Source of the DNA: an uncultured Candidatus Saccharibacteria bacterium
Lineage (GTDB): Bacteria > Patescibacteriota > Minisyncoccia > Phycocordibacterales > UBA5272
Direction: 5' to 3'
NCBI GenBank assembly: GCA_964512315.1
Contig: CAZEIK010000001.1
Coordinates: 20,408 to 84,407, forward strand
Length of the DNA stretch: 64,000 bases
Shown here one piece after another: positions 651 to 59,642 of this stretch (its first letter is position 1; every line of letters starts with the position of its first letter). Made by a program: the position numbers and the translations under genes. The notes beneath the pieces are model-generated. The model was not told where the DNA came from. It searched no databases and was given only the letters and a program-made list of their open reading frames with translations.

Positions 651-691
651 GGGAGCGACCACTTCAGTGGTCGCTCCCATTTCTTTTTTTT
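651..691. terminator. bidirectional rho-independent terminator (GGGAGCGACC-loop-GGTCGCTCCC flanked by A-run and T-run)
   Basis: perfect 10 bp inverted repeat followed by ATTTCTTTTTTTT; sits between convergent genes. Confidence 0.7.
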
Positions 692-1253
692 ATTTAGCTT
701 TTTTATAAGCGAAGTAGGAGATAAGTAGTACTGTTAGTCCGACAATGACAGACATGAGCGGCATAGTCACAAATCCAAAACTGACAACTTTTGCAGACTC
801 ACAACTTGCAACGAGTGGGTTAGGTGAGCATGGCATTGTAAGTGCGCTTTCACCCATTACATATTTGCGAAAGTGGAATGAGTAGTGATAAGTCGCCACA
901 AGAGTGGTCAGTGCTGCGAATATACTGATGAAGTGATGTGCAGCTCTTGTCTTTTTAAAGACTTCCACAATTGCAATCAGCAACATGCCGTATATGGTCA
1001 CACGCTGATACCAGCAGAACATACAAGGCGGGTCATTGTATACATATTCATACATATTTGCACCCACAACACCGAAGGCCACAATTGCTATTATTGCAGT
1101 CATCCAAGATTGATAAGAGATTTTTGAGACTAGGTTTTTAAATTTGTTATTTGTAAAATATAAAACCAAAACAATAATGTCTAGTGCAAGCAATGCCGCA
1201 ACTCCGACTGAGTTCAGGTCCGAGAACTGTTGAAAAGAAAGTATTTGATCCAT
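690..1253 (-). CDS. DsbB/BdbC-family disulfide bond formation membrane protein (4-5 TM, CMFC and C-x9-C loop cysteine pairs)
   Basis: CxxC in first extracytoplasmic loop plus second Cys pair ~60 aa later, hydrophobic TM pattern. Confidence 0.5.
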   Translation of the reverse strand: MDQILSFQQFSDLNSVGVAALLALDIIVLVLYFTNNKFKNLVSKISYQSWMTAIIAIVAFGVVGANMYEYVYNDPPCMFCWYQRVTIYGMLLIAIVEVFKKTRAAHHFISIFAALTTLVATYHYSFHFRKYVMGESALTMPCSPNPLVASCESAKVVSFGFVTMPLMSVIVGLTVLLISYFAYKKAK

Positions 1254-13230: not shown

Positions 13231-15426
13231 ATGAAAACACATATACCTGTTAACATCGCTCCGAGCTTTAAAAAGATAATTAAACGTGACAGGTCACAAG
13301 TCTTGTTTGATAAGAATAAAATAGTGTTAGCAATAGCCAAAGCTGGGCATGCAACAAAAGAATTTGATTCTAATATGGCGGAATTGCTGGCAGATAAAGT
13401 TGTCACTTATCTAAACGGCATAGTTCAGGGTGATATTGTTCAAATAGAACAAGTTCAAGATGCTGTAGAGCACGTCCTGATGGTATCTCGTTTTAAAGCC
13501 ACAGCAAAAGCTTACATTTTATACAGAGAGCAACACGCAGAAATGAGAAGTTTTGCTACAATGTCATCACTCGGACTGGTTGATAATTATTTAGATAAGT
13601 TAGATTGGCAAGTAAAAGAGAATAGCAATATGGGTTATTCTCTACAAGGTTTGAACAATTACATCTTTTCAGAAGTTAGCAAAACATATTGGCTAAATAA
13701 AATATATCCAAAAGAAATACGTGACGCATACGAGGCCGGAGATATACATATACATGACTTGGGTACATTATCGATATATTGCGTTGGGTGGGACTTGATG
13801 GACTTGTTAATTACAGGCTTCAAAGGTGTTAGTGACAAGATAGAGTCAGCCCCAGCAAAGCATTTCCGTACTGCTTTGGGTCAAGTTGTGAACTTTATGT
13901 ATACGCTTCAAGGTGAAGCTGCTGGTGCGATAGCTTTTTCGAATTTCGATACATTGTTAGCACCTTTTATCCGTTATGACAACCTTAGTCAAAAAGATGT
14001 AAAGCAAGCTCTTCAAGAATTCGTCTTCAACATGAATGTTCCTACTCGTGTCGGTTTCCAGACCCCATTTTCTAATATAACTTTAGATTTGAACCCCTCT
14101 GTAAATTTCAAAGACACACCTGTAATAATAGGTGGTAAGGCACAAAAAGAAACTTATAGTGAATTTCAAAAAGAAATGGACATGTTCAACGAGGCTTTTT
14201 TTGAAGTCATGATGGAAGGCGACTCCGCAGGGAGAGTCTTTTCTTTCCCTATACCAACCGTAAACATAACAAAAGACTTTCAGTGGGATAATCCAAAATT
14301 AAAAGGATTGTGGGAGATAACTGCAAAATACGGTGTACCTTATTTTAGTAACTTTGTTAGCTCAGATATGAAGCCAGAAGACACCCGTTCTATGTGTTGT
14401 AGATTGCGTTTAGATTTAGAAGAGTTAGACAGAAGAGGCGGCGGGTTATTTGGAGCCAATGCACTTACAGGATCTGTTGGCGTGGTTACTGTTAACTTGC
14501 CTAGACTAGCTCATATTGCGAAGTCTAAAAACAAAGACTCTTTGGAGTTAGCAAAGAGAGACTTTTTCGCAAAACTCGATGAGCAGATGGATATTGCAAA
14601 AGAAAGCTTAGAAATAAAAAGAAAGTTATTAGAAAAGCTTACCGATGCTAACCTTTACCCATATACAAAGTTTTATCTTAGGAATATAAAAAGTGGTTTT
14701 GGTCAGTATTGGAAAAATCATTTCTCAACAATAGGTCTTATTGGCATGAATGAAGTATCTCTGAATCTTTTTGGAGAAAATATTGGTACACAGTCTGGTA
14801 GAGATTTTGCAGGAGAAGTTTTGGATCATATGAGGACAAGACTGGTCAAATATCAAAAAGAGACCGGGAATCTTTATAACTTAGAAGCGACTCCAGCCGA
14901 AGGAACATCCTTTCGTCTTGCTCTTAAGGATAAAAAAATGTATCCAGATATAGTTGTGGCAAATGAAAGTCTTTATAAAAAAGGAGCTAAACCTTTCTAT
15001 ACAAATTCTTCACATTTACCAGTTAATTATACAAATGACATTATTGAAACATTAAATATTCAAGATGGATTACAAACCAAGTACACAGGAGGTACAGTTA
15101 TACATTTATTTTTAGGAGAAAAGCTGACCGACTATCAATCTGTACCAAATCTTGTTAAGAAAATATGTGAGAATTATAAGTTGCCATATTTTACTATTAC
15201 GCCCACCTTCAGTGTGTGTCCTCAGCATGGCTATATATCAGGAGAATGTTTTAGCTGTGGTATGTGTGGGAACGTTTGTGAGGTCTATTCACGTATAGTT
15301 GGGTATCTCAGACCTGTTAGTCAGTGGAACGAAGGTAAACAAGCCGAGTACGATATAAGAGAAACTTATATAACAGAGCCCGTTCTTACTATTAATAGCA
15401 AAGACTTAACACAATTAGCTGCATAA
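13231..15426 (+). CDS. nrdD: anaerobic (class III) ribonucleoside-triphosphate reductase with N-terminal ATP-cone
   Basis: ATP-cone N-term, C-terminal Cys4 zinc ribbon and glycyl-radical motif RIVGY. Confidence 0.9.
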   Translation: MKTHIPVNIAPSFKKIIKRDRSQVLFDKNKIVLAIAKAGHATKEFDSNMAELLADKVVTYLNGIVQGDIVQIEQVQDAVEHVLMVSRFKATAKAYILYREQHAEMRSFATMSSLGLVDNYLDKLDWQVKENSNMGYSLQGLNNYIFSEVSKTYWLNKIYPKEIRDAYEAGDIHIHDLGTLSIYCVGWDLMDLLITGFKGVSDKIESAPAKHFRTALGQVVNFMYTLQGEAAGAIAFSNFDTLLAPFIRYDNLSQKDVKQALQEFVFNMNVPTRVGFQTPFSNITLDLNPSVNFKDTPVIIGGKAQKETYSEFQKEMDMFNEAFFEVMMEGDSAGRVFSFPIPTVNITKDFQWDNPKLKGLWEITAKYGVPYFSNFVSSDMKPEDTRSMCCRLRLDLEELDRRGGGLFGANALTGSVGVVTVNLPRLAHIAKSKNKDSLELAKRDFFAKLDEQMDIAKESLEIKRKLLEKLTDANLYPYTKFYLRNIKSGFGQYWKNHFSTIGLIGMNEVSLNLFGENIGTQSGRDFAGEVLDHMRTRLVKYQKETGNLYNLEATPAEGTSFRLALKDKKMYPDIVVANESLYKKGAKPFYTNSSHLPVNYTNDIIETLNIQDGLQTKYTGGTVIHLFLGEKLTDYQSVPNLVKKICENYKLPYFTITPTFSVCPQHGYISGECFSCGMCGNVCEVYSRIVGYLRPVSQWNEGKQAEYDIRETYITEPVLTINSKDLTQLAA

Positions 15427-15427
15427 T

Positions 15428-16117
15428 ATGTTATTTGGTGGTTTTGAAAAGTTCACTTTGATAGATTACCCAGGGAAAACTGCTTGTATGGTTTATACAG
15501 TAGGCTGCCCATTTCGTTGTCCATATTGTCACAACCCAGAGCTGGTAAGCCAGGTTTGCGAAACAAAGATTGACGAAGAAAAAGTTATAGATTTTTTAAG
15601 GTCTAGAGTTGGGCTATTGGATGGCGTCGTTATTACCGGCGGAGAGCCAAGTATGCACGGAGACAATTTGATAAATTTTATGAGAAGAGTTAAGCTGCTT
15701 AACTTTTCAATAAAGCTTGATTCCAATGGTGTCGATCCCAGCTTTTTACAAAAAGTTATTAAAGAAAATCTAGTTGATTATATAGCTATGGACATAAAGT
15801 CGCCGATGGTGAAATATATGCAAACAGTAAATAGGTCTGTGGATGTAGAAGCTATTCGCAAAAGTATAGAGTTAATTAAAAGTAGCGGTAAGGATTATGA
15901 GTTTAGGACGACCGTTCTCGATTCTTTATTATCATTTGATGATATAGATAAAATAGGTACAGAAATTTCTGGTGCCAAGAGATACTTTTTACAAAAGTTT
16001 GTATCAACAAAAACTCTTAATCCAAAGTTTGCTAAAAAGTCTACATACAAAGATGAAGATTTTATAAAAATGAAAACACTTATGGAAAGGTACGTAGACT
16101 TTTGTGGAATAAGATAA
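15428..16117 (+). CDS. nrdG: anaerobic RNR activating radical-SAM protein
   Basis: CPFRCPYCHN radical SAM CxxxCxxC motif; start 2 nt after nrdD stop. Confidence 0.85.
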   Translation: MLFGGFEKFTLIDYPGKTACMVYTVGCPFRCPYCHNPELVSQVCETKIDEEKVIDFLRSRVGLLDGVVITGGEPSMHGDNLINFMRRVKLLNFSIKLDSNGVDPSFLQKVIKENLVDYIAMDIKSPMVKYMQTVNRSVDVEAIRKSIELIKSSGKDYEFRTTVLDSLLSFDDIDKIGTEISGAKRYFLQKFVSTKTLNPKFAKKSTYKDEDFIKMKTLMERYVDFCGIR

Positions 16118-16120
16118 TTT

Positions 16121-16819
16121 ATGCTAGAAAACACAATTCAGTACATCGTTGTAAGAGTAGAAAAAGAAACGCATGATGTTTTTAGGTTAGGCCTGGCTCC
16201 AGAGGGCGGACTACTTAGTTATGTGGCAGGACAAGTTATTACAATATATTATCCAGAAGTTTCTAAAAATAAAGGCAAGGAATACAGTATCTCTAGTGCC
16301 CCAAGTGAGAATTGTTTTGAAATAACTGTAAAAAGAGTGGGAGTGTTTTCTGAGATGATTACTAGTAAAAAACCAGGGGATATTATTATCGGGTCCCTGC
16401 CTTATGGGTATTTTTATACAGAGTCAGAAGTTTCTGATTTGGTATTTTTAGCTGGAGGTATTGGAGTCGTGCCGTTCATGAGTATTATAGTAGAAACCTT
16501 GAAACTTAATCCAACTAGGAAGATTAGTCTTTTTTATTCTAATAAAAATCTCAAAGATATTGTGTTTAAAAGTAAGTTAGATAACTTGGTCAAGTTACAC
16601 AAAAGTAACTTTCATGTTTTTTATTATTTAACAAAGGAAGTATCGTGTGAGGCTGACACAAAGAGTGGCAGAATATCAGTCCAAGACGTTCTGCAATATT
16701 GTAACAACGAGACAGAGCTCTTTCTCTGTGGATCAAGCGGTTTTGTGTCTAGTTACTACAGGGCTCTTGTTCAAAATAACACATCAGAGCAAAACATTTT
16801 CACCGAAGAGTTTTCCTAG
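16121..16819 (+). CDS. FNR-family FAD/NAD(P)-binding oxidoreductase (Fpr-like ferredoxin/flavodoxin reductase module)
   Basis: R-x-Y-S FAD motif, GGIGVVP NAD(P) motif; positioned to follow nrdG. Confidence 0.6.
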   Translation: MLENTIQYIVVRVEKETHDVFRLGLAPEGGLLSYVAGQVITIYYPEVSKNKGKEYSISSAPSENCFEITVKRVGVFSEMITSKKPGDIIIGSLPYGYFYTESEVSDLVFLAGGIGVVPFMSIIVETLKLNPTRKISLFYSNKNLKDIVFKSKLDNLVKLHKSNFHVFYYLTKEVSCEADTKSGRISVQDVLQYCNNETELFLCGSSGFVSSYYRALVQNNTSEQNIFTEEFS

Positions 16820-16866
16820 GTGGTGTTATACTTTTATTAAGTTACCTTTATCTTTAAATTTAAAAC

Positions 16867-18111
16867 ATGTATTCATATATTATATTTGAAATATTATCTT
16901 GGTTGTCTGGTCTTGTGGCTGCGATAGTTTTTTTGGAGCATTTATTAAAAAGAAAGTCTATTAGAGATTTTTTTAAAAGAAAGTGGGTATATATACCAAT
17001 TATAGTTTTGGTGTTGTCATATTTTGGTGGCGTTTTATCAGATAGAACTTATTCTCCTGGGTTTGCTATGCCTATGTTCATGCACACAATGGCTCCAGGC
17101 GGGGTAGCGCCGAATTTACCTTTCGCTAATGTGATTAACTTTTTTAAAAGCCAATCTAATTTTGAAAAGGTTTCAGATATAGGAAGAGATCCTAATGATG
17201 TGCCATCAGCCTTAAGTAGAGATACATCACAAGAAGTTAAGATAAATATAAATGTTAAAGAAGTTATAAGTGAGGTATCGCCAGGAATTTATTTTAATTA
17301 TTGGACATTTGATAATGCTGTACCTGGTCCAATGTATAGAGTAAGAGAAGGGGATACTATTATCATGTCTATAACCAACGACAAGACAAGTTTACATCAT
17401 CACAACATAGATCTTCATGCCGTGACAGGTCAAGGCGGAGGAGCCTCACTTACCGACGTTATGCCAGGAGAAACCAAAACATTTAAATGGAAAGCTCTCA
17501 ATCCTGGACTTTTTATTTATCATTGTGCCATGCCAAATGTGAGTACTCATAATTCGCATGGTCAATATGGCTTGATACTTGTTGAACCGAAAGAAGGGTT
17601 AGCAAAAGTAGACAAAGAGTTTTATGTGGTTCAGGGTGAACTTTATACAATGGGGGAAATAGGTAAAAAGGGGCTAACTATTTTTGATTCACAAGCCCTT
17701 GTTGATGGGCATCCGAATTATGTTACATTCAACGGTAAGATAGAAAGCTCGCCACGTATGCACGCAAAAGTCGGAGATAAAATACGTATTTATTTTGGTA
17801 ATGGTGGTGTTAACTTAATATCTTCATTCCATGTTATTGGTGAGATATTTGACAAAGTTTATCCAGAAGGCGCAATAGGTGAAGGTGGTGCGGTTTTAAA
17901 AAATGTTCAGACAACAGCTGTGTTGCCTGGTGGGTCTACAATCGTAGAGTTTAAGGTAGATGTTCCAGGTAAATATTTGTTAGTGGATCATGCTCTAGCT
18001 AGGATGAACAAGGGAGCCTGGGCGGTGTTAGAGGTCACAGGGTCTAGTACTCCAGAAATATATTCTCCAGTATATCAAGAGGGAGAGGATATGGAAGACA
18101 TGCAGCATTAG
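16867..18111 (+). CDS. nirK: copper-containing nitrite reductase (two-cupredoxin NirK) with N-terminal 2-TM anchor
   Basis: HHHNIDLHAVTGQGG (type 1/type 2 Cu His ligands) and YHCA...H...M type 1 Cu site; N-terminal hydrophobic helices. Confidence 0.75.
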   Translation: MYSYIIFEILSWLSGLVAAIVFLEHLLKRKSIRDFFKRKWVYIPIIVLVLSYFGGVLSDRTYSPGFAMPMFMHTMAPGGVAPNLPFANVINFFKSQSNFEKVSDIGRDPNDVPSALSRDTSQEVKININVKEVISEVSPGIYFNYWTFDNAVPGPMYRVREGDTIIMSITNDKTSLHHHNIDLHAVTGQGGGASLTDVMPGETKTFKWKALNPGLFIYHCAMPNVSTHNSHGQYGLILVEPKEGLAKVDKEFYVVQGELYTMGEIGKKGLTIFDSQALVDGHPNYVTFNGKIESSPRMHAKVGDKIRIYFGNGGVNLISSFHVIGEIFDKVYPEGAIGEGGAVLKNVQTTAVLPGGSTIVEFKVDVPGKYLLVDHALARMNKGAWAVLEVTGSSTPEIYSPVYQEGEDMEDMQH

Positions 18112-28699: not shown

Positions 28700-28789
28700 G
28701 GAAACGTGGCTGAGCTGGTCTAAGGCACCTCACTGCTAACGAGGCGACCCCTTAAAGGTCCGTGGGTTCGAATCCCACCGTTTCCGCCA
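28700..28789 (+). tRNA. tRNA-Ser (anticodon GCT), long variable arm, CCA encoded
   Basis: 90 nt; acceptor GGAAACG/CGTTTCC, T-arm GGTTCGAATCC, anticodon loop CTGCTAA. Confidence 0.85.
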
Positions 28790-28814
28790 AGAGAATTTAT
28801 CACCAGATATTTAT

Positions 28815-29234
28815 ATGAATAAAATAACAGTTAAAACGGTTGTTAATTGTGACCTAGAAAAAACTTGGGAATATTTTACTAATCCAATACATATTAATAA
28901 TTGGTGCCACGCTTCGTCTGACTGGGCTGCAAAAGATGCCGAGAATGACTTGCGTATTGGTGGCAGATTCAAAACTACAATGTATGCAATTGACGGTAGT
29001 GCAAGTTTTGACTTTGGTGGGGTGTATGATGGGGTGGATTTAAAAAAGTCTTATTCTTATACAATGGATGGAGATGACAAAAGACAGGTGTCAGTGATGT
29101 TTAGCTCTATTAATGAGGCAACAACTGAAGTCGTTGAAACTTTTGACCCAGAGAATATTAACAACGAAGAGAGGCAGCAACAAGGATGGCAGGCTATATT
29201 AGATAACTTTAAATCCTATACAGAGAGTAATTAA
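28815..29234 (+). CDS. SRPBCC/AHSA1-like small protein
   Basis: length and pattern typical of Aha1-domain proteins; weak. Confidence 0.45.
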   Translation: MNKITVKTVVNCDLEKTWEYFTNPIHINNWCHASSDWAAKDAENDLRIGGRFKTTMYAIDGSASFDFGGVYDGVDLKKSYSYTMDGDDKRQVSVMFSSINEATTEVVETFDPENINNEERQQQGWQAILDNFKSYTESN

Positions 29235-29249
29235 TATCTTTTTATTTAA

Positions 29250-29561
29250 TTAATTTTTAAGATCTGTGAAATTTTGTCCCCACTGCCAGCGTGGTGTTTC
29301 GCCTTTCCAGTAGCATATTATTATTAGAATAATCAGAGCAAAGAAAGTTTGTATGACAAATGGTCTTATGGTGTCACTGTTTGAATGTGACACAGAGTCT
29401 AGTCTGAGAAAATTCCAAAACTCGAAAACTACAAAAGCTAGAATTACTAGCCATCCTTGCCAAGAGACAGGTATCCATCCCCAGCCATAGAGTTTTCTTT
29501 TAAACCAGAGATTTTTAGGATTGTCATTAATATATTCCCAATATTGTTTCAACATATACAC
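29250..29561 (-). CDS. small hypothetical membrane protein
   Basis: 2 TM helices, Trp-rich. Confidence 0.35.
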   Translation of the reverse strand: MYMLKQYWEYINDNPKNLWFKRKLYGWGWIPVSWQGWLVILAFVVFEFWNFLRLDSVSHSNSDTIRPFVIQTFFALIILIIICYWKGETPRWQWGQNFTDLKN

Positions 29562-29652
29562 AAGTCTATTCCGTTTGTTATTAAATTACAATTAATATTT
29601 TACTTAATCACAGGTTGGTTGATGCGAGTGATGCTATAATCAAAATAGCATT

Positions 29653-31980
29653 ATGAAAGAAGAAAAAGCTTTTGAGAAGTACGTAAGAGCGGCTAATTAT
29701 TTGTCAGCAGCTCAGATTTTCTTGCAGGATAATTTTCTTCTGAAGAGGCCGCTGAAGTTCTCGGACATTAAGCCGAGACTGCTCGGTCACTGGGGTACTG
29801 CGCCAGGTGTGAATCTGGTATATGCGCATTTAAATAGGCTAGTAAGAGATAATGACCAGGAGATGATTTTTGTACTTGGCCCAGGGCATGGCTTTGCAGC
29901 ACTGCAGGCTAATCTTTTTATGGAGGGGACATTAAGTAAGTATTATCCAGAGTATCCAAGGGATGTGGATGGTATGAGCAAGATGATAAAGATGTTCAGC
30001 TGGCCTTACGGATTCCCAAGCCATACTAATCCTGGTACGCCTGGGGCAATATTAGAAGGAGGAGAGCTGGGCTACTCATTGTCTACCGCTTATGGGGCAG
30101 TACTAGATAATCCTAACTTAATAGCAGCGGTGTTAGTTGGTGATGGCGAAGCAGAGACAGGACCACTAGCTACTTCGTGGCATATTAACAAATTCATAGA
30201 CCCAAAGACATGTGGCACGGTGCTACCTATATTGCATAGGAATGGATATAAGATCTCGGGGCCAACTATTTTTGGTAGAATGAGTGAAGAAGAATTGGAG
30301 GCACTGTTTACTGGTTATGGATATCATCCTTATTTTGTTTCGGGAGGTAAAAATGTTCATCGTGACCTGTCTGCGACACTGGATAAATGTTACAAAGAGA
30401 TACAAAAAATAAAGTCACAAGATGGGGATTTTGTTCCACGCTTCCCAATGATTATATTAACTACTGAAAAGGGTGAAGGTGGTGTAAAAGAGTTAAACGG
30501 AAGAAAAGTAGAAGGCAATTTTGCTTCGCATCAAGTGGTATTAACTGATGCTAACAATAGCAAAGAGCAGTTAGTGATGTTAGAAGAGTGGCTGAAGAGT
30601 TATAAATTTGAGGAGCTGTTCGACGAGGAGGTTGGCTTCTGCGAGGAGATAGAGTCACTAATACCCAAGTCAGAAAGAAGAATAGGTAATAATAGGCAAT
30701 GCTTCGGCGGTGAAGCGGTGTGTAAGGACTTATTCTTGCCTGATATAACGCCAGATGCAGTACAAGTTGTAGCTCCAGGCGATAACTCGTCTAGTAACAT
30801 GCGTGCAGCAGGAGCTTATCTAAAGCGTGTAATTGAGATGAATGAAGTATCTAAAAATTTTAGAGTATTTTCTCCAGATGAGACTTATTCCAATAAGCTT
30901 GATGCTATTTTCCAGAAGACCACTAGGCAATTCTTATGGCCAATCAAAAAGCAAGACGAAGACATGTCTAGGAGCGGTAGGGTCATAGAGATGTTGAGCG
31001 AGCATTCACTGCAAGGCATGATGCAAGGTTATATATTAACGGGCAGGCATGCAGTGTTCCCATCTTATGAGGCATTTGTTCAGATCGTTAGTAGTATGGC
31101 TGATCAATACGCCAAGTTCATTAGAGTCGCAAGAGAGATACCGTGGCGTGGGCATGTGGCCTCTCTTAATTATATTCTAACTAGCCCAGGCTGGGCTCAG
31201 GAGCATAATGGCTTCTCACATCAGAATCCTGGCTTCATAGATACTGTATTACAAAAACACGGCTCATTTGTTCATGTCTATTTCCCGACAGACAGAAATA
31301 GTACATTAGTAGTACTTGAAAAGTGTCTCGCTTCCAAGGAAGGCATTAACTTAATTGTCTCAGGTAAGGCCGATACCCCTGAGTGGCTCAATTTGGACCA
31401 AGCTAGAAAAATGGGAGATATGGGTCTAGCCATATGGGACTTTGCTAGCGATCAGAATCCAGATATTGTCTTTGCGGCAGTGGGTGACTATTTAACCAGG
31501 GAGTGCTTGGCAGCTATAATGATTTTGAAAGAAGATGTAGAGGGTATTCGTTTGAGGTTTGTAAATATTTTAGAACTGACTGCACTATTGCCTCAGAATG
31601 GTAAAAGATTTGAAAGTTTTAATAATTATTTTACTGAAGATAAGCCAGTTATAATAAATTTTCATGGTTATCCAGAGACTATAAAACAAATACTTTTTGA
31701 TATGGGTAGTGCGGCGGGCCGTATGTATATACATGGATACTTAGAGAGCGGGTCAACGACTACGGCTTTTGATATGCAAGTTCGTAATGAGACAAGTCGT
31801 TATCACCTAGCAATGCAGACCTTAGATATTTTGTATAAAAAGGGAGAGCTAAGCTCAGACTTGTATCAGAATCTTAAAAATAAATATAAACTTATACTCG
31901 AGGAACACCGTAAATATATTATTGAAAATGGTGAAGACCCAGAATTTATATCAAAATGGAAATGGAGAAAAATATATTAG
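29653..31980 (+). CDS. xfp: xylulose-5-phosphate/fructose-6-phosphate phosphoketolase
   Basis: 775 aa, TPP-binding GDGE motif region, conserved XFP N-terminus (LLGHWGT). Confidence 0.9.
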   Translation: MKEEKAFEKYVRAANYLSAAQIFLQDNFLLKRPLKFSDIKPRLLGHWGTAPGVNLVYAHLNRLVRDNDQEMIFVLGPGHGFAALQANLFMEGTLSKYYPEYPRDVDGMSKMIKMFSWPYGFPSHTNPGTPGAILEGGELGYSLSTAYGAVLDNPNLIAAVLVGDGEAETGPLATSWHINKFIDPKTCGTVLPILHRNGYKISGPTIFGRMSEEELEALFTGYGYHPYFVSGGKNVHRDLSATLDKCYKEIQKIKSQDGDFVPRFPMIILTTEKGEGGVKELNGRKVEGNFASHQVVLTDANNSKEQLVMLEEWLKSYKFEELFDEEVGFCEEIESLIPKSERRIGNNRQCFGGEAVCKDLFLPDITPDAVQVVAPGDNSSSNMRAAGAYLKRVIEMNEVSKNFRVFSPDETYSNKLDAIFQKTTRQFLWPIKKQDEDMSRSGRVIEMLSEHSLQGMMQGYILTGRHAVFPSYEAFVQIVSSMADQYAKFIRVAREIPWRGHVASLNYILTSPGWAQEHNGFSHQNPGFIDTVLQKHGSFVHVYFPTDRNSTLVVLEKCLASKEGINLIVSGKADTPEWLNLDQARKMGDMGLAIWDFASDQNPDIVFAAVGDYLTRECLAAIMILKEDVEGIRLRFVNILELTALLPQNGKRFESFNNYFTEDKPVIINFHGYPETIKQILFDMGSAAGRMYIHGYLESGSTTTAFDMQVRNETSRYHLAMQTLDILYKKGELSSDLYQNLKNKYKLILEEHRKYIIENGEDPEFISKWKWRKIY

Positions 31981-33113
31981 TTCTAAATATCGGTAGCTCA
32001 TCTAAAAAGTATTCGCTCTTTAGTGGCGACAAGCATTTGTATTCTGCACATTTTGAAAAAGTTGGTGATGGGTATGTAGTTAAGTATGGTATAGAAAATG
32101 AAGTCGCTTCTAATGCTTTTGAATACGGCGAGGCCGTTGAGTGTTTCTATAAAAAGGTTAATGGATTGGGGTTTGTAAAAGATAGACTTGATGTTGACCT
32201 TGTCGCCATTCGTGTCGTTGCTCCTGGGACAAAATTCCAACAAAATTGTCTAGTTGATGACGTGTACATATCGTCACTGGGAGAGGTTGCTGCTGATGGT
32301 TACTTGCATGCACAAATAGTTCAAGAGGAGATAGTGAAAGTTAGAAAGTTTTTAAATGAAGTTAAGATTGTTGCAGTCTCAGACAGTGCATTCCATTCTA
32401 ATCTGCCTCGAGTCTCTCGAAATTATGCATTACCAAAAAATATTATAGAAGAAAATGACTTGTATCGTTTCGGTTATCATGGGCTATCTGTAGCAGCTGC
32501 GGCTAGATTTTTAAAAAGTGTTAACAGATTAGAAAGTAGAGCTATAGTGTGCCACCTCGGTAGTGGTGCAAGTGTGACAGCATTGATTAATGGTCGTAGT
32601 GTAGACACTAGTATGGGATATGCTCCATTCGACGGGTTAATCATGAGCTCGAGGTCCGGTAATGTTGATCCTGGTGCAGTGTTAAAGTTATCTAAAAAGT
32701 ATAGCCCAAATGAAATAGAAAATATTTTGTATAAAGATAGCGGACTCTTGGCTATAAGTAACATATCCAAAGATATGAGGGACCTCCTGGCTCTGGAGCA
32801 GAAGGGAGACAAGAATGCTGAGCTTGCAATTAACTCTTTTGTTTATTCTGTTAAGAAGTATATTGGTGCCTATGCTGCAGCTATGGGTGGAGTAGATGCG
32901 ATAGTATTCTCAGGCACAATGGGTATAAGGTCGGAGCCAATCAGGAGACGCATTTGCTCTAGTATGAAGTTTTTAAATATTGAATTAGATCAAGACAAAA
33001 ACAAAGAAGGTCAATTCAATAAAAACACCTCTACAGAAAAGTCCGTTCCAGTTTATCTTGTAGAAACAGATGAAGCCAAAGAGATGGCGTTAGTTGCTCT
33101 TTCCTTTTTGTAG
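31956..33113 (+). CDS. ackA: acetate kinase
   Basis: ILVLNIGSSS N-terminal ATPase motif; overlaps xfp stop (translational coupling). Confidence 0.85.
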   Translation: MEMEKNILVLNIGSSSKKYSLFSGDKHLYSAHFEKVGDGYVVKYGIENEVASNAFEYGEAVECFYKKVNGLGFVKDRLDVDLVAIRVVAPGTKFQQNCLVDDVYISSLGEVAADGYLHAQIVQEEIVKVRKFLNEVKIVAVSDSAFHSNLPRVSRNYALPKNIIEENDLYRFGYHGLSVAAAARFLKSVNRLESRAIVCHLGSGASVTALINGRSVDTSMGYAPFDGLIMSSRSGNVDPGAVLKLSKKYSPNEIENILYKDSGLLAISNISKDMRDLLALEQKGDKNAELAINSFVYSVKKYIGAYAAAMGGVDAIVFSGTMGIRSEPIRRRICSSMKFLNIELDQDKNKEGQFNKNTSTEKSVPVYLVETDEAKEMALVALSFL

Positions 33114-33130
33114 AACTATACTTATAAATT

Positions 33131-33838
33131 ATGGAAGCAAGAAAAGAGAATCAAGAGTTCGAGTTACTTTGCGCGCAATTAAATGACCCGAAAGTTCTTG
33201 AAGATTATAAACATTGTGATGATAATTATCGTCCAGCATTAGTGCCTAGGATGCTGGGCAAATTACTTGTAACCGCTGGTAACATTGTATATGGTTACAA
33301 GTCATCGTATTTAAAATTTAGAGCAGTGGAGGTTATTGCTCGCGTTCCTTATCATTCTTGGGACTCGGCAATGTTCACACTTCAGACAATGTTCTACTCT
33401 AATGAGAACAAGGCAATGCAATTATCTAAAATAGCCGAGTTCTCAAGAGTGGCAGCAGAGAATGAGACCATGCATGTAATAGTTATATCTAGCATTGCCA
33501 AAAAGGAGCACAAACGTGCTGGTATATTGAGGCACACTGTTATACCGATGTTATTCGCATTCTTCTATTTCTGGATGTCATATTTCTTATATATGATAAA
33601 GCCTAGATATTCATATGAGCTTAATTATCTTTTTGAACAACACGCATTCGACTCTTACAGTGAATTCTTAGAGCTTGATGGAGAGTCTTTAAAAAAGAAA
33701 ACAGTAGATAGTGAATTCTTGAGATGGTACGGACGCAATCCGATAAGTCAGTATGACTTTTTCTTGTCGGTTCGTAACGATGAGATAATACACAGAAATA
33801 CTTCTATAAGAGAGATTGAAAGAGTGGAGAGTATCTAA
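33131..33838 (+). CDS. alternative oxidase (AOX/PTOX-like membrane diiron carboxylate oxidase)
   Basis: four AOX signature boxes in order: VEVIARVP (LETVA), ENETMHV (NERMHL), EQHAFDSYSEFL (LEEEAxHSYTEFL), RNDEIIHR (RADEAHHR), with a hydrophobic interfacial segment between boxes 2 and 3. Confidence 0.7.
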   Translation: MEARKENQEFELLCAQLNDPKVLEDYKHCDDNYRPALVPRMLGKLLVTAGNIVYGYKSSYLKFRAVEVIARVPYHSWDSAMFTLQTMFYSNENKAMQLSKIAEFSRVAAENETMHVIVISSIAKKEHKRAGILRHTVIPMLFAFFYFWMSYFLYMIKPRYSYELNYLFEQHAFDSYSEFLELDGESLKKKTVDSEFLRWYGRNPISQYDFFLSVRNDEIIHRNTSIREIERVESI

Positions 33839-33842
33839 ATAC

Positions 33843-33874
33843 AAAAAGTCGCCCGCGGAGCGGGCGACTTTTTG
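33843..33874. terminator. bidirectional terminator (AAAAAGTCGCCCGC-GGAG-CGGGCGACTTTTT)
   Basis: perfect 12 bp inverted repeat with flanking A/T runs. Confidence 0.8.
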
Positions 33875-33881
33875 TATTTTA

Positions 33882-34376
33882 TTATTTATAATGATCGCGT
33901 ATCTCGAACAATATATAGAAACCAATAAGAGCACTAACAAAAGTTCCTACAAATCCACCAAACATCAAAACCATACTGACGACACCACTTATTACACTAA
34001 GTATCTCACTGTAAAAAGCATAATCCCAACCTTTCTTTGTTCTGGCTGCCAGTCCCTTGTAAGCCATCAATAAGAATATTGCAGAAGCAAGAGATATTAA
34101 CAGAACTACAAGTAATGGTAAGCTGGCTCCCAGACTTAACACTGTTAATCCTGCTGTTAAGATCCCTCCTGTAGCAAGACCGATAACACCCAATATTCCA
34201 AACACTAGAGCGACGTAAGGAGAAACATCTACTAAGAATTTTCTTCCACCCTCGGGTAAGTGTGGAAAGTTTTTAAAGAAGTCCGCAAGAACAGACTCTA
34301 ATTTGCTAGCATGAGAGTGCACCTTGTGATGCATGTTCTCATGTGAAGCATGTTCATGATTTGTTGTATTTTCCAT
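33882..34376 (-). CDS. hypothetical 4-TM membrane protein with His-rich N-terminus (HEHASHENMHHKVHSH)
   Basis: hydrophobic helices; metal-binding-like His cluster. Confidence 0.4.
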   Translation of the reverse strand: MENTTNHEHASHENMHHKVHSHASKLESVLADFFKNFPHLPEGGRKFLVDVSPYVALVFGILGVIGLATGGILTAGLTVLSLGASLPLLVVLLISLASAIFLLMAYKGLAARTKKGWDYAFYSEILSVISGVVSMVLMFGGFVGTFVSALIGFYILFEIRDHYK

Positions 34377-34400
34377 AATATTTAAAGTATACTACAATTC

Positions 34401-35108
34401 ATGGAACAAGTACTTCTACCTTTACACTTACTAAGTTTATTATATTGTATCGTTACAATAATACGTTCTGACCTGTTGGGGTCTAAATGGTTACGCGGCA
34501 AAATAGATACGATAAATAAAGACAAATTACAAAGCCTACACAAGCAAGCTTGGATAGGATTAATATTAATGATAGCCACAGGCTCGGTATTGTTCTATCA
34601 AAGTATGGACGTGTTACTTGCTTCAGCACCATTCTATGTCAAAATGGCGTGTGTTCTGGCATTAGTAATAAATGCTTTTGCAATAGGCAGGCTAATGAAA
34701 GTTGCTACAGAAAAGAAGTTCTCAGAAGTAAGTAAGGAGGTAAAGGTTAAATTATTTGTATCAGGGTTTGTTTCTATATTTTGTTGGATAATGGCAGCCA
34801 CAGCCGCATTCTTTATCTTGCCTGAAGGTGAAGATGCTGTACTTCCTATAATAGACAATCAATCAACAACAAAAACTTTTACACTAGCTGAAGTTGCTAC
34901 ACACGGAGGAGAGGACAGTTGTTATACAGCGATCAATGGTAATGTATACGACATAACAAAATACATATCATTGCATCCGGGAGGCAAGACTGCAATTATG
35001 AGAGTTTGTGGTAATGATGGAACTGCAACATTTACTCGTAAGCATGGTGACGATGAGAAGCCAAATTTGATTTTACGCAGCATGCAAGTAGGGGTGCTTA
35101 CTCAATAA
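34401..35108 (+). CDS. membrane protein with C-terminal cytochrome b5-like heme-binding domain
   Basis: 4 N-terminal TM helices; C-terminal YDITKYISLHPGG...GNDGTATF...KHG matches the cyt b5 HPGG fold signature with the second His. Confidence 0.6.
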   Translation: MEQVLLPLHLLSLLYCIVTIIRSDLLGSKWLRGKIDTINKDKLQSLHKQAWIGLILMIATGSVLFYQSMDVLLASAPFYVKMACVLALVINAFAIGRLMKVATEKKFSEVSKEVKVKLFVSGFVSIFCWIMAATAAFFILPEGEDAVLPIIDNQSTTKTFTLAEVATHGGEDSCYTAINGNVYDITKYISLHPGGKTAIMRVCGNDGTATFTRKHGDDEKPNLILRSMQVGVLTQ

Positions 35109-35110
35109 AT

Positions 35111-35497
35111 ATGAAAGCTGTAGTTAACTTTTTCGACAAATTAGAAGATCATGTAAGAGGAGGACTCTCTAAATATCCACTTATATACTCTTTCTTTGGG
35201 GGCACTGGTGTTATCTTGTTTTGGAGAGGGCTTTGGCATAGCGCAGACTGGTTAGAAAGTAACACATTGTATGGCGAAGTGCTTTTTTCTAATGTTGGGT
35301 CAATGCTTTTGGGTATAGTTCTATTGCTTATTACTGGCTTATTCGTGTCTGTTTTTATTGGAGACAGCATAATCATGACAGGCGTTAAGCATGAAAAGAA
35401 ATTGACCGAAAAAACAGAAGACGAAATAGAAGAGGAAAAATTAGAGCTACTACATCTTCACAAAGACTTAGAGGACATAAAAGATAAGTTGAATTAA
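35111..35497 (+). CDS. small 2-TM protein with acidic coiled-coil tail
   Basis: ORF immediately follows the cyt b5 gene (3 nt gap). Confidence 0.35.
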   Translation: MKAVVNFFDKLEDHVRGGLSKYPLIYSFFGGTGVILFWRGLWHSADWLESNTLYGEVLFSNVGSMLLGIVLLLITGLFVSVFIGDSIIMTGVKHEKKLTEKTEDEIEEEKLELLHLHKDLEDIKDKLN

Positions 35498-43094: not shown

Positions 43095-43245
43095 TTATCC
43101 CCTTCCTATATATATATACATATATATACTGTATAAGATGAGATCGCCTGTTCGTGGATTCACTTTATTAGAGCTAATAGTAGTCATAGCTATTATAGGA
43201 GTATTGTCAGTAATAATAATACCGAGTTTTAGGACGGCGCTGGAT
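43095..43245 (+). repeat. copy 1 of a duplicated ~150-200 bp pilin promoter + 5' CDS cassette (TTATCCCCTTCC box, interrupted TA tract, first ~35 codons)
   Basis: ~85% nucleotide identity to 54880-55030. Confidence 0.7.
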
Positions 43246-43932
43246 AGGGCTAATGATACAAAGTTGAAACAGTTTGCTATCACATTAGATAAGAAGAATG
43301 ACATTATAAATAAATATGATTTTGAAGAGGGTTCAGGATTGTTGTCAAAAGATAGCAATGTATATCAACGAAACAATTTAACCCTCCCAGGTTCTGGTGT
43401 TACATTTAGTCAAAATACATATTCTAGTTCCTCGGCTTACTCTTTACTATTTGATGGTACTAGTTTTGTTACTTCTCAAAATAACCTACCCGTTATTGAT
43501 GGCAAGTCATTTTCGGTGTCGGTTTGGGTTAAAAAAACTCAATCTGACCCATTGAAGAAAACCTTATTTGGTAAATATTCTGGCCTTAATGGATTAGTAT
43601 TTGTTTTTAATAATAATATATTTGCAGTTGAGCGAGCAGGTTTTGTGTCTTGTTCATTGCCATATTCCAGTGATACAAATTGGCATCATTATGTTTTTTC
43701 TTTTAACTCTAATTCAAACATGGGGGTTATTTATGTTGATTCAAAAAAAGAAAATCAATGTAATATGGGAGGGGTGTATGTTGGTAACGATACTCAGCCA
43801 ATAATTTTGGGTCCTGCTATTAATGCTACTTATATGGATGATTTAAGGTTCTTTGATAAGGATATACTTTCCAGTGAAGTGCAGAAGTTATATGCCGAAG
43901 GGCTCAGTAGTGGCAAGTTTGCGAACAGGTAA
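43138..43932 (+). CDS. type IV pilin-like protein (prepilin cleavage/methylation N-terminus) fused to a LamG/concanavalin-like domain
   Basis: MRSPVRG|FTLLELIVVIAIIGVLS class III leader with Glu+5; C-terminal jelly-roll-like region shared with the 54926 paralog. Confidence 0.7.
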   Translation: MRSPVRGFTLLELIVVIAIIGVLSVIIIPSFRTALDRANDTKLKQFAITLDKKNDIINKYDFEEGSGLLSKDSNVYQRNNLTLPGSGVTFSQNTYSSSSAYSLLFDGTSFVTSQNNLPVIDGKSFSVSVWVKKTQSDPLKKTLFGKYSGLNGLVFVFNNNIFAVERAGFVSCSLPYSSDTNWHHYVFSFNSNSNMGVIYVDSKKENQCNMGGVYVGNDTQPIILGPAINATYMDDLRFFDKDILSSEVQKLYAEGLSSGKFANR

Positions 43933-54879: not shown

Positions 54880-55030
54880 CTCTTATCCCCTTCCATATAT
54901 ATATATATATATATATACTCAAAACATGAGACATCATGTTCGAGGTTTTACTTTACTAGAGTTAATAGTAGTAATAGCTATAATAGGTGTATTGTCAGTA
55001 ATAATAATACCTTCATTCAAAACAGCATTA
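54880..55030 (+). repeat. copy 2 of the duplicated pilin promoter + 5' CDS cassette
   Basis: ~85% identity to 43095-43245 including the TTATCCCCTTCC box and first ~35 codons. Confidence 0.7.
54895..54917 (+). repeat. (AT)11 dinucleotide microsatellite in the pilin promoter, 8 nt upstream of the ATG
   Basis: uninterrupted ATATAT... 23 nt; the paralogous copy at 43107-43128 is interrupted by C. Confidence 0.9.
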
Positions 55031-55699
55031 AGTAGAGCTAATGATACAAAGTTAAAACAAAATATTACCAACATAATAAAAAGGTATGATGTAATTGCAA
55101 AATGGGAGTTAGAAGAAGGGTTCGGTAATATTGCCAAAGACACATCTATCAATCAAATAGATAATACAATACAGAATAATGCCACGATACCAGGCTCAGG
55201 AGTGACTTGGTCTACAGACACATATGCTAGCTCTTCACAGTATTCACTCGCATTTAATGGTACTAACTATTTAACTACAGTTAATAATACTTATCCAAAA
55301 TTAGATGGTTCGTCATTCTCTTTTTCGCTTTGGTTCAAGAGAACTGGAGGATTTGGTGTGGGAGACAGAATGCTTTTAGCTAAGGGCACCCATGGGACAA
55401 GGCAGTGTCTTGCTGTTGGATTTAGAGATGATGAGTTGATGATAGGTCCATGGGGTCCTGAGTATATGACAGGATTGCGTATTACGGATCAGAATTGGCA
55501 TAATCTTATGTTTAGTTTTGACGCTAGCACAAACATTGTGACCGCCTATGTAGACAACAGATTAATTGGACGAGGTAACTGGGGAGGGTCACTAGCAAAC
55601 ACAGATTCATATCCGCTAAGGATTGGTACTTATGGTGGTGGTAACTTTATAGGTAACATCGACGATGTTTATTATTTTAAAGATCTTATCGTTAAGTAA
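54926..55699 (+). CDS. type IV pilin-like protein with LamG/concanavalin-like domain (paralog of 43138-43932)
   Basis: identical MR..VRGFTLLELIVVIAIIGVLSVIIIPSF N-terminus; shared downstream blocks (GSGVT-S-TY-SSS, DG-SFS-S-W-K-T, NWH, YVD, DD-FFD). Confidence 0.7.
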   Translation: MRHHVRGFTLLELIVVIAIIGVLSVIIIPSFKTALSRANDTKLKQNITNIIKRYDVIAKWELEEGFGNIAKDTSINQIDNTIQNNATIPGSGVTWSTDTYASSSQYSLAFNGTNYLTTVNNTYPKLDGSSFSFSLWFKRTGGFGVGDRMLLAKGTHGTRQCLAVGFRDDELMIGPWGPEYMTGLRITDQNWHNLMFSFDASTNIVTAYVDNRLIGRGNWGGSLANTDSYPLRIGTYGGGNFIGNIDDVYYFKDLIVK

Positions 55700-55754: not shown

Positions 55755-56273
55755 ATGGCATTTCTGTCCCCAAGACAAATGGTTGACTTGTTAGACATAA
55801 CACCAGGGTCTACGGTGGTGGATTTGGGGTCTGGATCTGGAGCTTATGTGTATGAAGTTTGCAAAGTTAATGGCCCGCATGGAAGAGTAATAGCAGTAGA
55901 TATAGACAGAGATAAGTTACAAATGGTTGATTCCGCAGCTAAGATAGGCGGCTACAAAATAGATACATTACTAGCTGACCTAGATAAAAGCATTATTTTG
56001 CCTGATTATTTTGCTGATTACATTATCCTCGCTAACACTTTACACTTGGTTGATAACAAGCTTGGACTACTGCGTGAGTGCGCAAGAATGCTTTCTCCTA
56101 CTGGTTACATGTTGTTGGTTGACTGGAGTTCTGATTCTAATTTGGGACCAAAGAGTGATAAACTAGACAAGACGTCCCTTGTGGCATCTCTGGCTGCGGC
56201 CAAGTTACGTGTGAGACGCGAACTACCAGCCGGGGATCATCATTTTGGATTTATAATAGAACCGCTAAAATAA
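55755..56273 (+). CDS. class I SAM-dependent methyltransferase
   Basis: VVDLGSGSG motif I, acidic motif II (VDID), 172 aa. Confidence 0.6.
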   Translation: MAFLSPRQMVDLLDITPGSTVVDLGSGSGAYVYEVCKVNGPHGRVIAVDIDRDKLQMVDSAAKIGGYKIDTLLADLDKSIILPDYFADYIILANTLHLVDNKLGLLRECARMLSPTGYMLLVDWSSDSNLGPKSDKLDKTSLVASLAAAKLRVRRELPAGDHHFGFIIEPLK

Positions 56274-58746: not shown

Positions 58747-59241
58747 ATGAAAAAAATAATTACAACTTTATCAATATTATCACTAGTTCAAGTAGTAGCG
58801 GCTCAGCAAGTTCTGAATAATGTCGAGACCATAGTCACAAAGTCATCCGGCATTATCGGTAGTGGAGTAACAGGCCTATTAATGGGTGTTACTTTTGTGG
58901 TGTTCCTAATATCTATCATTACATTCTTATTAAAGAGAAGATCTGGAGACGACAAGGGTCTACAAGATGCCAAGAATATGTTGGGCTGGAGCGTGATTGC
59001 TATGTTCGTTATGGTTGCTGTGTGGGGCTTGGTTACATTTATTTCTCAGACTTTTAATATAGGGCTCGGCGGGCAAGTTGCCAGACCTTCTGCTATCCCT
59101 ATAGAGAAAAATTCTAATCAACCTGGCGATACCCCAGGTTCTGGGTTAGGAGCTGTTGGTTCTGTTTGTAGTCAGCCCTCAGATTGTTTGAGTGGTAAGT
59201 GTACTGCAGCAGCTAATTCTTCTATAAAGACCTGTGATTAG
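58747..59241 (+). CDS. 2-TM hairpin mini-protein with signal peptide and Cys4 C-terminal tail
   Basis: signal peptide ...VVAAQQ; core KRRSGDDKGLQDAKNMLGWSVIAMFVMVAVWGLVTFIS; tail CSQPSDCLSGKC...KTCD. Confidence 0.5.
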   Translation: MKKIITTLSILSLVQVVAAQQVLNNVETIVTKSSGIIGSGVTGLLMGVTFVVFLISIITFLLKRRSGDDKGLQDAKNMLGWSVIAMFVMVAVWGLVTFISQTFNIGLGGQVARPSAIPIEKNSNQPGDTPGSGLGAVGSVCSQPSDCLSGKCTAAANSSIKTCD

Positions 59242-59243
59242 TT

Positions 59244-59555
59244 ATGACCACTTTAAAAGATTCTGTTAACTCAATAAGTGACTTCGTAGGTAACACTATT
59301 ACCAGCTTGCTTCTAACTGTTGCTGTTGCGGCATTCTTTTGGTCAGTAGTGATGTTTCTCTTCAATAGATCAAGAGGTAACACTGACGCGATGCAGGATG
59401 CTAAGAATAAGTTGCTGTGGAGTATTATCGGGCTATTTGTAATGTTTTCTATTTGGGGCATTATTACCTTTTTCCAAGAAGGTTTTGGAATAAAAGATAA
59501 AAACACTGTAAAAGTACCAAGTATTGAGGCTAGTTCTAACTCAGAGAGTAATTAA
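59244..59555 (+). CDS. 2-TM hairpin mini-protein, Ser-rich tail
   Basis: core NRSRGNTDAMQDAKNKLLWSIIGLFVMFSIWGIITFF. Confidence 0.5.
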   Translation: MTTLKDSVNSISDFVGNTITSLLLTVAVAAFFWSVVMFLFNRSRGNTDAMQDAKNKLLWSIIGLFVMFSIWGIITFFQEGFGIKDKNTVKVPSIEASSNSESN

Positions 59556-59642
59556 TACTTTAAGGGTTAAAGTGGACAAGCTATTGCTTATTAAAATTAA
59601 TATAGATACACTTAAGACTATACATATAGTATTTGTAAAATT

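Follow-up and report, generated by a model that had tools for sequence, protein, structure and literature searches.

To our knowledge, every characterised member of the alternative oxidase (AOX)/PTOX family is a quinol oxidase. Bacterial AOX of the mitochondrial type are known from Novosphingobium and Vibrio. Members of the candidate phyla radiation (CPR, or Patescibacteria) are regarded as obligate fermenters without electron transport. Here we analyse an AOX-like gene (33131-33838) in a 64,000-nt stretch of DNA, hereafter the window, from an uncultured Candidatus Saccharibacteria bacterium (GenBank assembly GCA_964512315.1, contig CAZEIK010000001.1, positions 20,408 to 84,407 of the forward strand). 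A first-pass annotation of the window had rightly taken its source to be CPR-like, the organism being a Patescibacterium, and had described the AOX-like protein as hard-wired to a substrate-level-phosphorylation operon, with a neighbouring cytochrome b5 as possible electron donor. We find that the protein belongs to the AOX/PTOX diiron family with all ligands intact, and that across related loci its gene is independent of both. Our preferred reading, to which we give a probability of roughly 55%, is that it would act as an independent, non-energy-conserving interfacial diiron quinol:O2 oxidoreductase on scavenged quinone.

Quinol oxidases have been reported before in CPR. Cytochrome bo3 and bd quinol oxidases occur in CPR genomes without quinone biosynthesis, and O2 detoxification or host-supplied quinones have been proposed for them (PMC4508563, PMC8407418, PMC9938205). 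The present case is alike in that an O2-reducing quinol oxidase would be found in a fermentative genome without quinone synthesis or a complete chain. It differs in the enzyme, since those oxidases belong to the heme-copper and bd families and are energy-conserving, whereas an AOX is a diiron carboxylate protein and is not. The AOX type is unmentioned in these three papers, and a 2026 review of the Minisyncoccota mentions only bo3 and bd oxidases. A single CPR AOX hit, probably from Proteobacteria, was remarked on in passing (PMC9540462); apart from that remark, nothing relevant was returned by a literature search for AOX (including K17893) in Parcubacteria, CPR, Patescibacteria or Minisyncoccota.

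The ORF (open reading frame) matches the Pfam AOX family PF01786 with E 2.5e-12 (47.4 bits against a gathering cutoff of 22.7, over profile positions 53-210 of 216). It carries the motifs VEVIARVPY (E67), NETMH (E112/H115), FEQHAFDSYSEFL (E169, Y176) and RNDEIIHR (E218/H221). The six iron ligands E67, E112, H115, E169, E218 and H221, together with Y176, are invariant in an alignment of 31 close homologs and stay so when annotated cyanophage PTOX sequences are added. Over 50 diverse sequences covering the detectable AOX superfamily, the same seven residues are invariant, as are N111 and D217. The four AOX/PTOX boxes described in the first-pass annotation are all present, and no iron ligand is lost on alignment.

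The closest characterised structure is TAO of Trypanosoma brucei (PDB 3VV9/3VVA). Searching PDB by sequence with the window protein alone, the clade profile or phage PTOX returned no match; a broad superfamily profile of the 50 sequences reached TAO at E 2e-11, with the four motifs in register (LETVAGVP/VEVIARVP, NERMHL/NETMHV, LEEEAVITY/FEQHAFDSY and RADEAEHR/RNDEIIHR for TAO and the window protein, respectively). The ligands fall opposite TAO E123, E162/H165, E213 and E266/H269, and Y176 is the Tyr of TAO LEEEAVITY (Y220). TAO residues R118, L122, A216, T219 and Y220, which we take to line the quinol/inhibitor pocket, map conservatively to K62, V66, A172, S175 and Y176. No N-terminal hydrophobic signal or signal peptide was found in the ORF, and in the sequence comparison its very hydrophobic, aromatic helix 138-156 aligns with the membrane-binding helix of TAO.

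Structure prediction agrees with this placement. An AlphaFold2 model made from the family alignment (pLDDT 90, pTM 0.88) was compared with PDB by Foldseek: the 14 best matches were all TAO (probability 1.0, TM-score 0.63-0.68), TAO being the only confident match, and the next folds, unrelated helical proteins and other ferritin-like proteins, had E > 0.25. A COQ7 fold was rejected on this basis (7sss, E 0.52, TM-score 0.34), and the Dps, YciE and ADO folds gave similarly weak matches. No Pfam or NCBIfam match to COQ7, MiaE or rubrerythrin families was obtained with the ORF. The family check against COQ7 and ferritin-like proteins proposed in the first-pass annotation therefore comes out for AOX, with PF01786 above its cutoff and TAO as the only confident fold match. 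The two proteins share the six ligands in the order E...ExxH...E...ExxH, the active-site Tyr and a hydrophobic, putatively interfacial helix, and non-proton-pumping quinol:O2 oxidoreduction would be the expected shared chemistry. They differ in sequence (about 19-20% identity; NETMHV and FEQHA in place of NERMHL and LEEEA) and in setting, since the source Patescibacterium has no respiratory chain or known quinone synthesis such as surrounds mitochondrial-type AOX.

Relatives of the protein were collected with a HMMER scan over 1.84 billion cluster representatives, which returned 455 at E <= 1e-3, 145 at E <= 1e-10 and 15 at E <= 1e-30. By motif these relatives fall into three tiers: the Patescibacteria clade itself (NETMHV ... 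RNDExxHRN), an uncharacterised prokaryotic ‘NEQWH’ group (QDNEQWHLLI ... DERxHK) and PTOX-like sequences (SWNE[LM]HHLLI or ADNELHHLLI ... RDDExEH). No classical NERMHL/NERMH sequence was found among the 150 nearest representatives. The first-pass annotation had proposed a phylogeny against AOX and PTOX; in a neighbour-joining tree, a simple distance tree without support values, the Patescibacteria clade has the ‘NEQWH’ group as its sister and stands away from both PTOX-like and cyanophage PTOX sequences. Assignment to the classical AOX subfamily was rejected, as the ORF has NETMHV, FEQHA and RNDEIIHR and not NERMHL, LEEEA and RADEAxHR, and assignment to the PTOX subfamily was rejected on the tree. 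Tree and motifs together give a separate clade, neither classical AOX nor PTOX.

Among annotated sequences, cyanophage PTOX is nevertheless the closest (24-25% identity, covering 74-81% of the length). PTOX has in common with the clade the ARVPY and ExHA...Y motifs and every ligand, and both proteins are regarded as safety-valve O2 reductases. Apart from the separate branch that the Patescibacteria clade occupies with the ‘NEQWH’ group, phage PTOX differs in having neither the N-terminal extension of about 58 residues nor the 17-residue insert before the last helix found in the clade, and the source Patescibacterium has no photosynthetic plastoquinone pool.

The clade is large. A word-indexed search gave 975 clusters at 90% identity, and PF01786 was found in all 120 of those listed. 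Named members come from Yonath-, Kaiser- and Adlerbacteria and from Paceibacterota/Minisyncoccia, to which a genome scan adds Nomura- and Giovannonibacteria; some already bear the label ‘alternative oxidase’ (NCBI) or ‘ubiquinol oxidase’ (JGI). Scanning one genome per species returned 106 encoding stretches, 80 of which, on contigs up to 831 kb and 1.17 Mb in all, made up our comparative set of AOX loci (L001 and onwards). Beyond the genus-level group of the window protein, homologs are 52-67% identical to it across Paceibacteria lineages, and 57-67% is the figure across the lineages named above; such a value is high for CPR and would imply strong purifying selection. As judged by motifs, tree and distribution, this is a distinct, strongly conserved, Patescibacteria (Paceibacteria)-specific AOX/PTOX clade, widespread and normally encoded by a stand-alone gene.

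Since the one CPR AOX mentioned in the literature groups with proteobacterial sequences (PMC9540462), the window gene could have been a mis-binned contaminant or an inconsequential recent proteobacterial transfer. We give this reading a negligible probability. Long Patescibacteria contigs, the largest of 831 kb, carry hundreds of homologs amid typical CPR genes, and the clade differs from the classical NERMHL type. The window is continuously syntenic with its relatives (ABC-F, mscL, tRNA-Ser, comF, secA), and the GC content and third-position GC (GC3) are native-like. The distribution data effectively refute this reading.

The genes of the region, with the two other segments of the window referred to below, are as follows.

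690..1253, - strand: DsbB/BdbC-family thiol oxidase (PF02600; Pfam DsbB E 7.5e-12, 46.3 bits against a cutoff of 22.1)
13231..18111, + strand: nrdD-nrdG (O2-sensitive anaerobic ribonucleotide reductase), an FNR-like flavoprotein gene and nirK (Pfam/NCBIfam)
29653..31980, + strand: xfp, phosphoketolase, 775 amino acids (aa) (Pfam XFP_N/XFP/XFP_C, NCBIfam NF003619)
31956 (or 31962)..33113, + strand: ackA, acetate/propionate-family kinase, 385 or 383 aa (Pfam Acetate_kinase E 1.8e-82)
33094..33122, + strand: promoter-like element of the AOX gene, TTGCTC (33094-33099), 17-nt spacer, TATACT (33117-33122), called from conservation
33131..33838, + strand: AOX/PTOX-family, putatively membrane-associated diiron oxidase of the Patescibacteria-specific clade, 235 aa (PF01786, ligands, fold model)
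33837..33879, unstranded: bidirectional intrinsic terminator, 20-bp GC-rich stem with A-run/T-run flanks
33882..34376, - strand: His-rich protein with four transmembrane segments (4-TM), 164 aa, family unassigned (8 His in the first 22 residues, 4 hydrophobic segments)
34401..35108, + strand: 4-TM domain with a C-terminal cytochrome b5 domain, 235 aa (PF00173 E 1.9e-17)
35111..35497, + strand: small membrane protein with an acidic coiled-coil tail, 128 aa, starting 2 nt after the cytochrome b5 gene

A mechanical ORF listing recovered every gene of the first-pass annotation at its coordinates. The xfp product has three XFP domains (E down to 5e-140) and scores 983 bits against the NF003619 cutoff of 962; a TATAAT box lies 12 nt before its ATG. 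That of ackA scores 280 bits with TIGR00016, slightly under the cutoff of 293. Its start is possibly the second ATG, which gives the 383 aa of an independent Logan gene call, and the overlap with xfp is accordingly 25 or 19 nt. The reported overlap of xfp and ackA and the same-strand AOX gene close behind them are thus correct; only the distance changes, from 18 to 17 nt, the AOX start being the 18th nucleotide after the ackA stop. No hairpin or terminator was detected in this 17-nt gap.

Downstream, the hairpin at 33837-33879 has a folding free energy of about -32 kcal/mol on each strand (z = -8.9 and -9.9 against shuffles). Placed between the convergent genes for AOX and the His-rich protein and flanked by A and T runs, it is the bidirectional terminator already noted in the first pass. 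The convergent His-cluster 4-TM protein and the 4-TM protein with a cytochrome b5 (HPGG) domain announced there are likewise recovered by ORFs, hydrophobic segments and PF00173.

The arrangement xfp-ackA-AOX could be read as a functional operon, in which O2 reduction by the oxidase would dispose of reducing equivalents while acetyl-phosphate is converted to acetate and ATP. Heterofermentative lactic acid bacteria offer a parallel: their phosphoketolase pathway yields more ATP through the action of NADH oxidase. The three genes lie on one strand with the overlap, gap and missing terminator just described; a second, independent contig (Logan, same sample) shows this gene order too; and xfp and ackA have the same GC and GC3 as native genes, with no compositional sign of recent transfer. 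The adjacent, overlapping xfp and ackA resemble the Xfp-Ack pathway of bifidobacteria, heterofermentative lactic acid bacteria and fungi, and the same conversion of acetyl-phosphate to acetate and ATP would be expected.

Comparison with related loci, however, makes this operon reading improbable. When the window proteins were used in tblastn, neither xfp nor ackA was found within 10 kb or less of AOX at any of the 80 loci. The nearest relatives are included, namely L001 (86% AOX identity) and L002 and L003 (75%), which share with the window the order ABC-F, mscL, tRNA-Ser(GCT), small TM protein, AOX, His-rich TM protein, TM-cytochrome b5, small TM protein, comF and secA. What differs is the content of the segment between tRNA-Ser(GCT) and AOX. 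In the window (28700-33130) it holds AHSA1, the small TM protein, xfp and ackA. The corresponding segment of L002 (5665-10000) carries four other ORFs, the same small TM protein and then DUF2127, SDR and a hypothetical ORF before AOX, and a VOC/glyoxalase gene stands directly 5' of AOX in L001. Such differences in gene content define a strain-variable slot, and it is in this slot, 3' of tRNA-Ser, that the window pair departs from the described Xfp-Ack systems, being missing there in the closest relatives.

Furthermore, the AOX gene is preceded by a promoter-like element of its own. The sequence TTGnnn-17-TATACT, located 6-8 nt before the ATG (8 in the window), is in register in the window, L001 and L002, and the latter two keep it despite having other genes upstream. 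The -35 box of the window element sits inside the final ackA codons. The element is below the threshold of a consensus scan, with 3/6 matches in the -35 box, and the call is inferred from its conservation.

The wider set of loci points the same way. Short same-strand gaps 5' of AOX are common with unrelated genes, as these genomes are compact. Of the roughly 70 loci with a called AOX gene, at most 13 share any one neighbouring gene family, the commonest neighbours being a DUF5673-like protein, cobalamin adenosyltransferase and riboflavin kinase. An NADH-to-quinone link was not seen in the 64-kb window. A scan of metagenome contigs for ackA returned three distant loci (33-34% identity) with neither xfp nor AOX, which also stand against the operon but are uninformative on close relatives. 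As for an insertion scar, the search for direct or inverted repeats flanking xfp-ackA gave only short, AT-rich chance matches.

The xfp-ackA-AOX adjacency is thus most likely a strain-specific juxtaposition in a variable slot and not a conserved design. With no xfp or ackA at the 80 loci, a variable slot and an own promoter-like element, the claim that the oxidase is ‘hard-wired’ to a substrate-level-phosphorylation operon does not stand. The first-pass annotation had further remarked that such a pairing was not known to be described. This is true of the adjacency, though only this lineage has it, and the wider puzzle of a quinol oxidase in CPR genomes without quinone biosynthesis was already recognised for bo3 and bd oxidases.

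Two further observations were made on these genes. Divergence between the window and L001 is mosaic (L001 11369-12283 against 1715-2419): 99% identity for a TrxB-like protein, 90% for SecA, 86% for AOX and 73-75% for the His-rich, cytochrome b5 and small TM proteins, a pattern that suggests recombination between related strains. Secondly, the AOX, cytochrome b5 and xfp genes each have a TATACT or TATAAT box (33117-33122, 34385-34390 and 29632-29637, respectively) just 7-12 nt before the ATG and no obvious Shine-Dalgarno sequence. The closeness of these boxes suggests leaderless or near-leaderless mRNAs in the source organism.

The cytochrome b5 protein was next to be considered as the donor of electrons to the oxidase in place of quinol, as for membrane desaturases. 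It is a genuine cytochrome b5: the HPGG histidine H193 and the second axial histidine H216 are conserved, together with a C174/C203 pair, and H9 and H47 are conserved in the TM domain. In its AlphaFold2 model (pLDDT 81), four long TM helices are joined through a disordered linker to a domain of canonical b5 fold, and this heme domain superposes on cytochrome b5 structures with a TM-score of about 0.8 and an rmsd of about 1.5 Å (Foldseek). The gene lies less than 600 bp from AOX in the window and in L001-L003, and the window encodes a flavoprotein resembling FNR/cytochrome b5 reductase (16121-16819).

Distribution and topology nonetheless make a b5 donor very unlikely. In 5.8 billion proteins, about 10 full-length homologs of the TM-cytochrome b5 fusion were found, compared with the roughly 975 clusters of AOX; the same search returned three stand-alone 142-aa copies of the TM domain and one cytochrome b5 with a lipoprotein signal. 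The gene accompanies AOX in L001-L003 only and is missing at 77 of the 80 loci; the bidirectional terminator and a convergent gene also stand between it and AOX. The heme domain is also predicted to be extracytoplasmic. Loops 25-52 and 97-118 are strongly positive, which would place both termini outside; in the homologs P0127 and P0130, long linkers rich in Ser, Thr and Pro connect TM4 to the heme domain; P0134 is a lipoprotein-signal cytochrome b5 with a ...LTAC lipobox; and the Cys pair fits the same location. The AOX-like protein has no signal peptide and, by analogy with other family members, should be on the cytoplasmic face.

One PDB match of the b5 domain, at the joint-highest identity (34%), is moreover a soluble bacterial protein, cytochrome b558 of Ectothiorhodospira vacuolata (1CXY, TM-score 0.84). 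Like it, the window domain has both axial His and a Cys pair and is predicted to be extracytoplasmic, but instead of being soluble it is tethered to the 4-TM domain with His9 and His47. The suggestion of cytochrome b5 as donor is therefore not upheld, given its narrow distribution, the terminator between the genes and the predicted outward heme domain.

What the cytochrome b5 gene forms with its neighbour looks like a separate, lineage-restricted, outward-facing redox module, judging from gene order and predicted topology. The small TM gene begins 2 nt past the cytochrome b5 gene, so that co-transcription of both is probable, and it adjoins the cytochrome b5 gene also in L001-L003 and L084-L086. 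Homologs of the His-rich protein were found only in L001-L003 among the 80 loci. The 4-TM domain (34401-34830) has conserved His9, Asp24, Trp30, His47 and Asn91 and exists as the stand-alone 142-aa proteins P0131-P0133. It gave no confident Pfam or PDB match, with weak hints to HemJ, NnrS and CydB, and it may be a heme-binding transmembrane electron conduit. On the Logan contigs L085 (939-1325) and L086 (762-1148), the cytochrome b5 protein is 100% identical to that of the window and the small TM protein only 74%, followed by a different same-strand gene; there seems to be a recombination breakpoint at the cytochrome b5/small-TM boundary.

With both proposed partners set aside, we return to the preferred reading of the oxidase as an independent quinol:O2 oxidoreductase. 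The protein would be held on the cytoplasmic face of the membrane via its hydrophobic helices, would take two electrons at a time from membrane quinol and would reduce O2 to water at the diiron centre with no proton pumping. The quinone would probably be scavenged from a host or from the environment, a source that we propose since quinone synthesis is not known in these organisms. Its role would be O2 scavenging and the disposal of quinol electrons, protecting O2-labile enzymes such as NrdD and re-oxidising quinol produced by enzymes such as the DsbB homolog of the window. Of the non-energy-conserving O2-scavenging function put forward in the first pass, the O2-reducing role stands as the most reasonable function, while coupling to the substrate-level-phosphorylation operon is not supported.

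One feature of the window that bears on quinone is the DsbB homolog. It has a C77-M-F-C80-W-Y-Q-R84 motif and a second Cys pair (C141/C150), and scores under the NCBIfam equivalog cutoffs. All characterised DsbB/BdbC members, as far as we know, pass electrons to membrane quinones. The homolog would imply extracytoplasmic disulfide formation and, with it, quinone in the source cell and a need for quinol re-oxidation.

Several points weigh against this reading. Pfam and NCBIfam annotation of the 64-kb window found no men or ubi genes or other quinone biosynthesis gene, no NDH-2, no ATP synthase and, except for DsbB, no obvious quinone reductase. This DsbB type is itself lineage-restricted, with 15 homologs at the sensitivity of the search, and cannot explain AOX function across the clade. 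Concerning substrate specificity, identity between the clade and the characterised AOX and PTOX is only 19-25%, and the clade's own profile misses TAO. Concerning independence, read-through from the xfp promoter into AOX is possible in this strain, given the 17-nt gap without terminator. Two candidates were rejected in the course of this analysis: DsbB as a general AOX partner, since dsbB was not seen in the neighbourhood of AOX at any of the 80 loci and this DsbB type has just 15 homologs at the search's sensitivity, and UbiE as the identity of the methyltransferase at 55755-56273, whose signal is that of a generic class-I methyltransferase far under the UbiE cutoffs.

An AOX fold and diiron site could also serve another substrate, the protein being an oxidase or hydroxylase of a different lipophilic or soluble reductant, or an enzyme related to NO or reactive oxygen species. 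Besides the deep divergence and separate branch of the clade, with its N-terminal extension and its insert at 194-210, the general lack of quinone biosynthesis in CPR genomes would fit such an activity. So would the gene context at some loci, where AOX adjoins or lies near nirK, and that of one sister-clade member in a Fur/PerR-rubrerythrin-rubredoxin-Msr cluster. We nevertheless consider it rather unlikely, although it is the main rival to the preferred reading. The catalytic Tyr and all AOX-specific second-shell residues are kept (N111, D217 and R/K at the position of TAO R118), as is the hydrophobic helix predicted to bind the membrane. The characterised family members are quinol oxidases as a matter of general knowledge, a DsbB in the same genome would imply quinone, and the remaining sister-clade contexts are not stress-related.

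The contexts in question are as follows. The nirK gene is immediately 5' of AOX in L015 (321-1457); nrdD-nrdG-nirK lies 1-5 kb from AOX in L080 (4505-8736), and nirK 7.5 kb away in L004 (17582-18757). In the window, the copper nitrite reductase gene nirK (TIGR02376, 298 bits against a cutoff of 296) is in the nrdD-nrdG segment, and a thioredoxin-reductase-like gene is also present. The proximity of nirK/nrdDG and AOX is a loose but recurrent association of an NO-producing NirK, an O2-sensitive ribonucleotide reductase and a heme-free oxidase. It would also fit the preferred reading, as would the presence of NrdD/NrdG in the window.

In L088 (504-5788), the sister ‘NEQWH’ protein P0163 is encoded between a side with a divergent Fur/PerR-family regulator, three or four rubrerythrins and a rubredoxin, and another with a fused MsrB-MsrA. 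From its predicted gene products, this cluster is an oxidative-stress island typical of an anaerobe. The neighbourhood is not repeated in L089-L091, three loci with two further sister-clade proteins, where the sister-clade genes come after a MaoC dehydratase gene. Elsewhere in the window, pilin-like genes are scattered, with N_methyl and Laminin_G_3 domains at 43138-43932 and 54926-55699 and T4SS_pilin family ORFs 3' of gyrA (about 59241-60059); they are typical of an episymbiotic CPR surface apparatus.

Taken together, comparative analysis of related loci does not support an oxidase tied firmly to a substrate-level-phosphorylation operon with cytochrome b5 as its electron source, and we drop this idea. 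What stays is a new and uncharacterised clade within a known family of enzymes, with quinol as its presumed donor in these organisms. An AOX/PTOX-type diiron oxidase that is broadly and strongly conserved in Paceibacteria is a wider phenomenon than the reported bo3 and bd oddities, and one known to annotation pipelines yet not discussed in the searchable CPR literature. We tentatively extend this to a broader proposal, held with less confidence than our reading of the window protein itself: the Patescibacteria branch may be the commonest O2-reducing enzyme of Paceibacteria, in cells without quinone synthesis, working on host-membrane quinol or on a non-quinone donor, and in the present strain read-through from the inserted xfp-ackA could add a coupling to fermentation. 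If active, such an enzyme would explain aerotolerance in these bacteria and would raise the question of where quinol or an alternative reductant comes from. If it runs on quinol of the host membrane, it would provide a direct metabolic read-out of episymbiosis.

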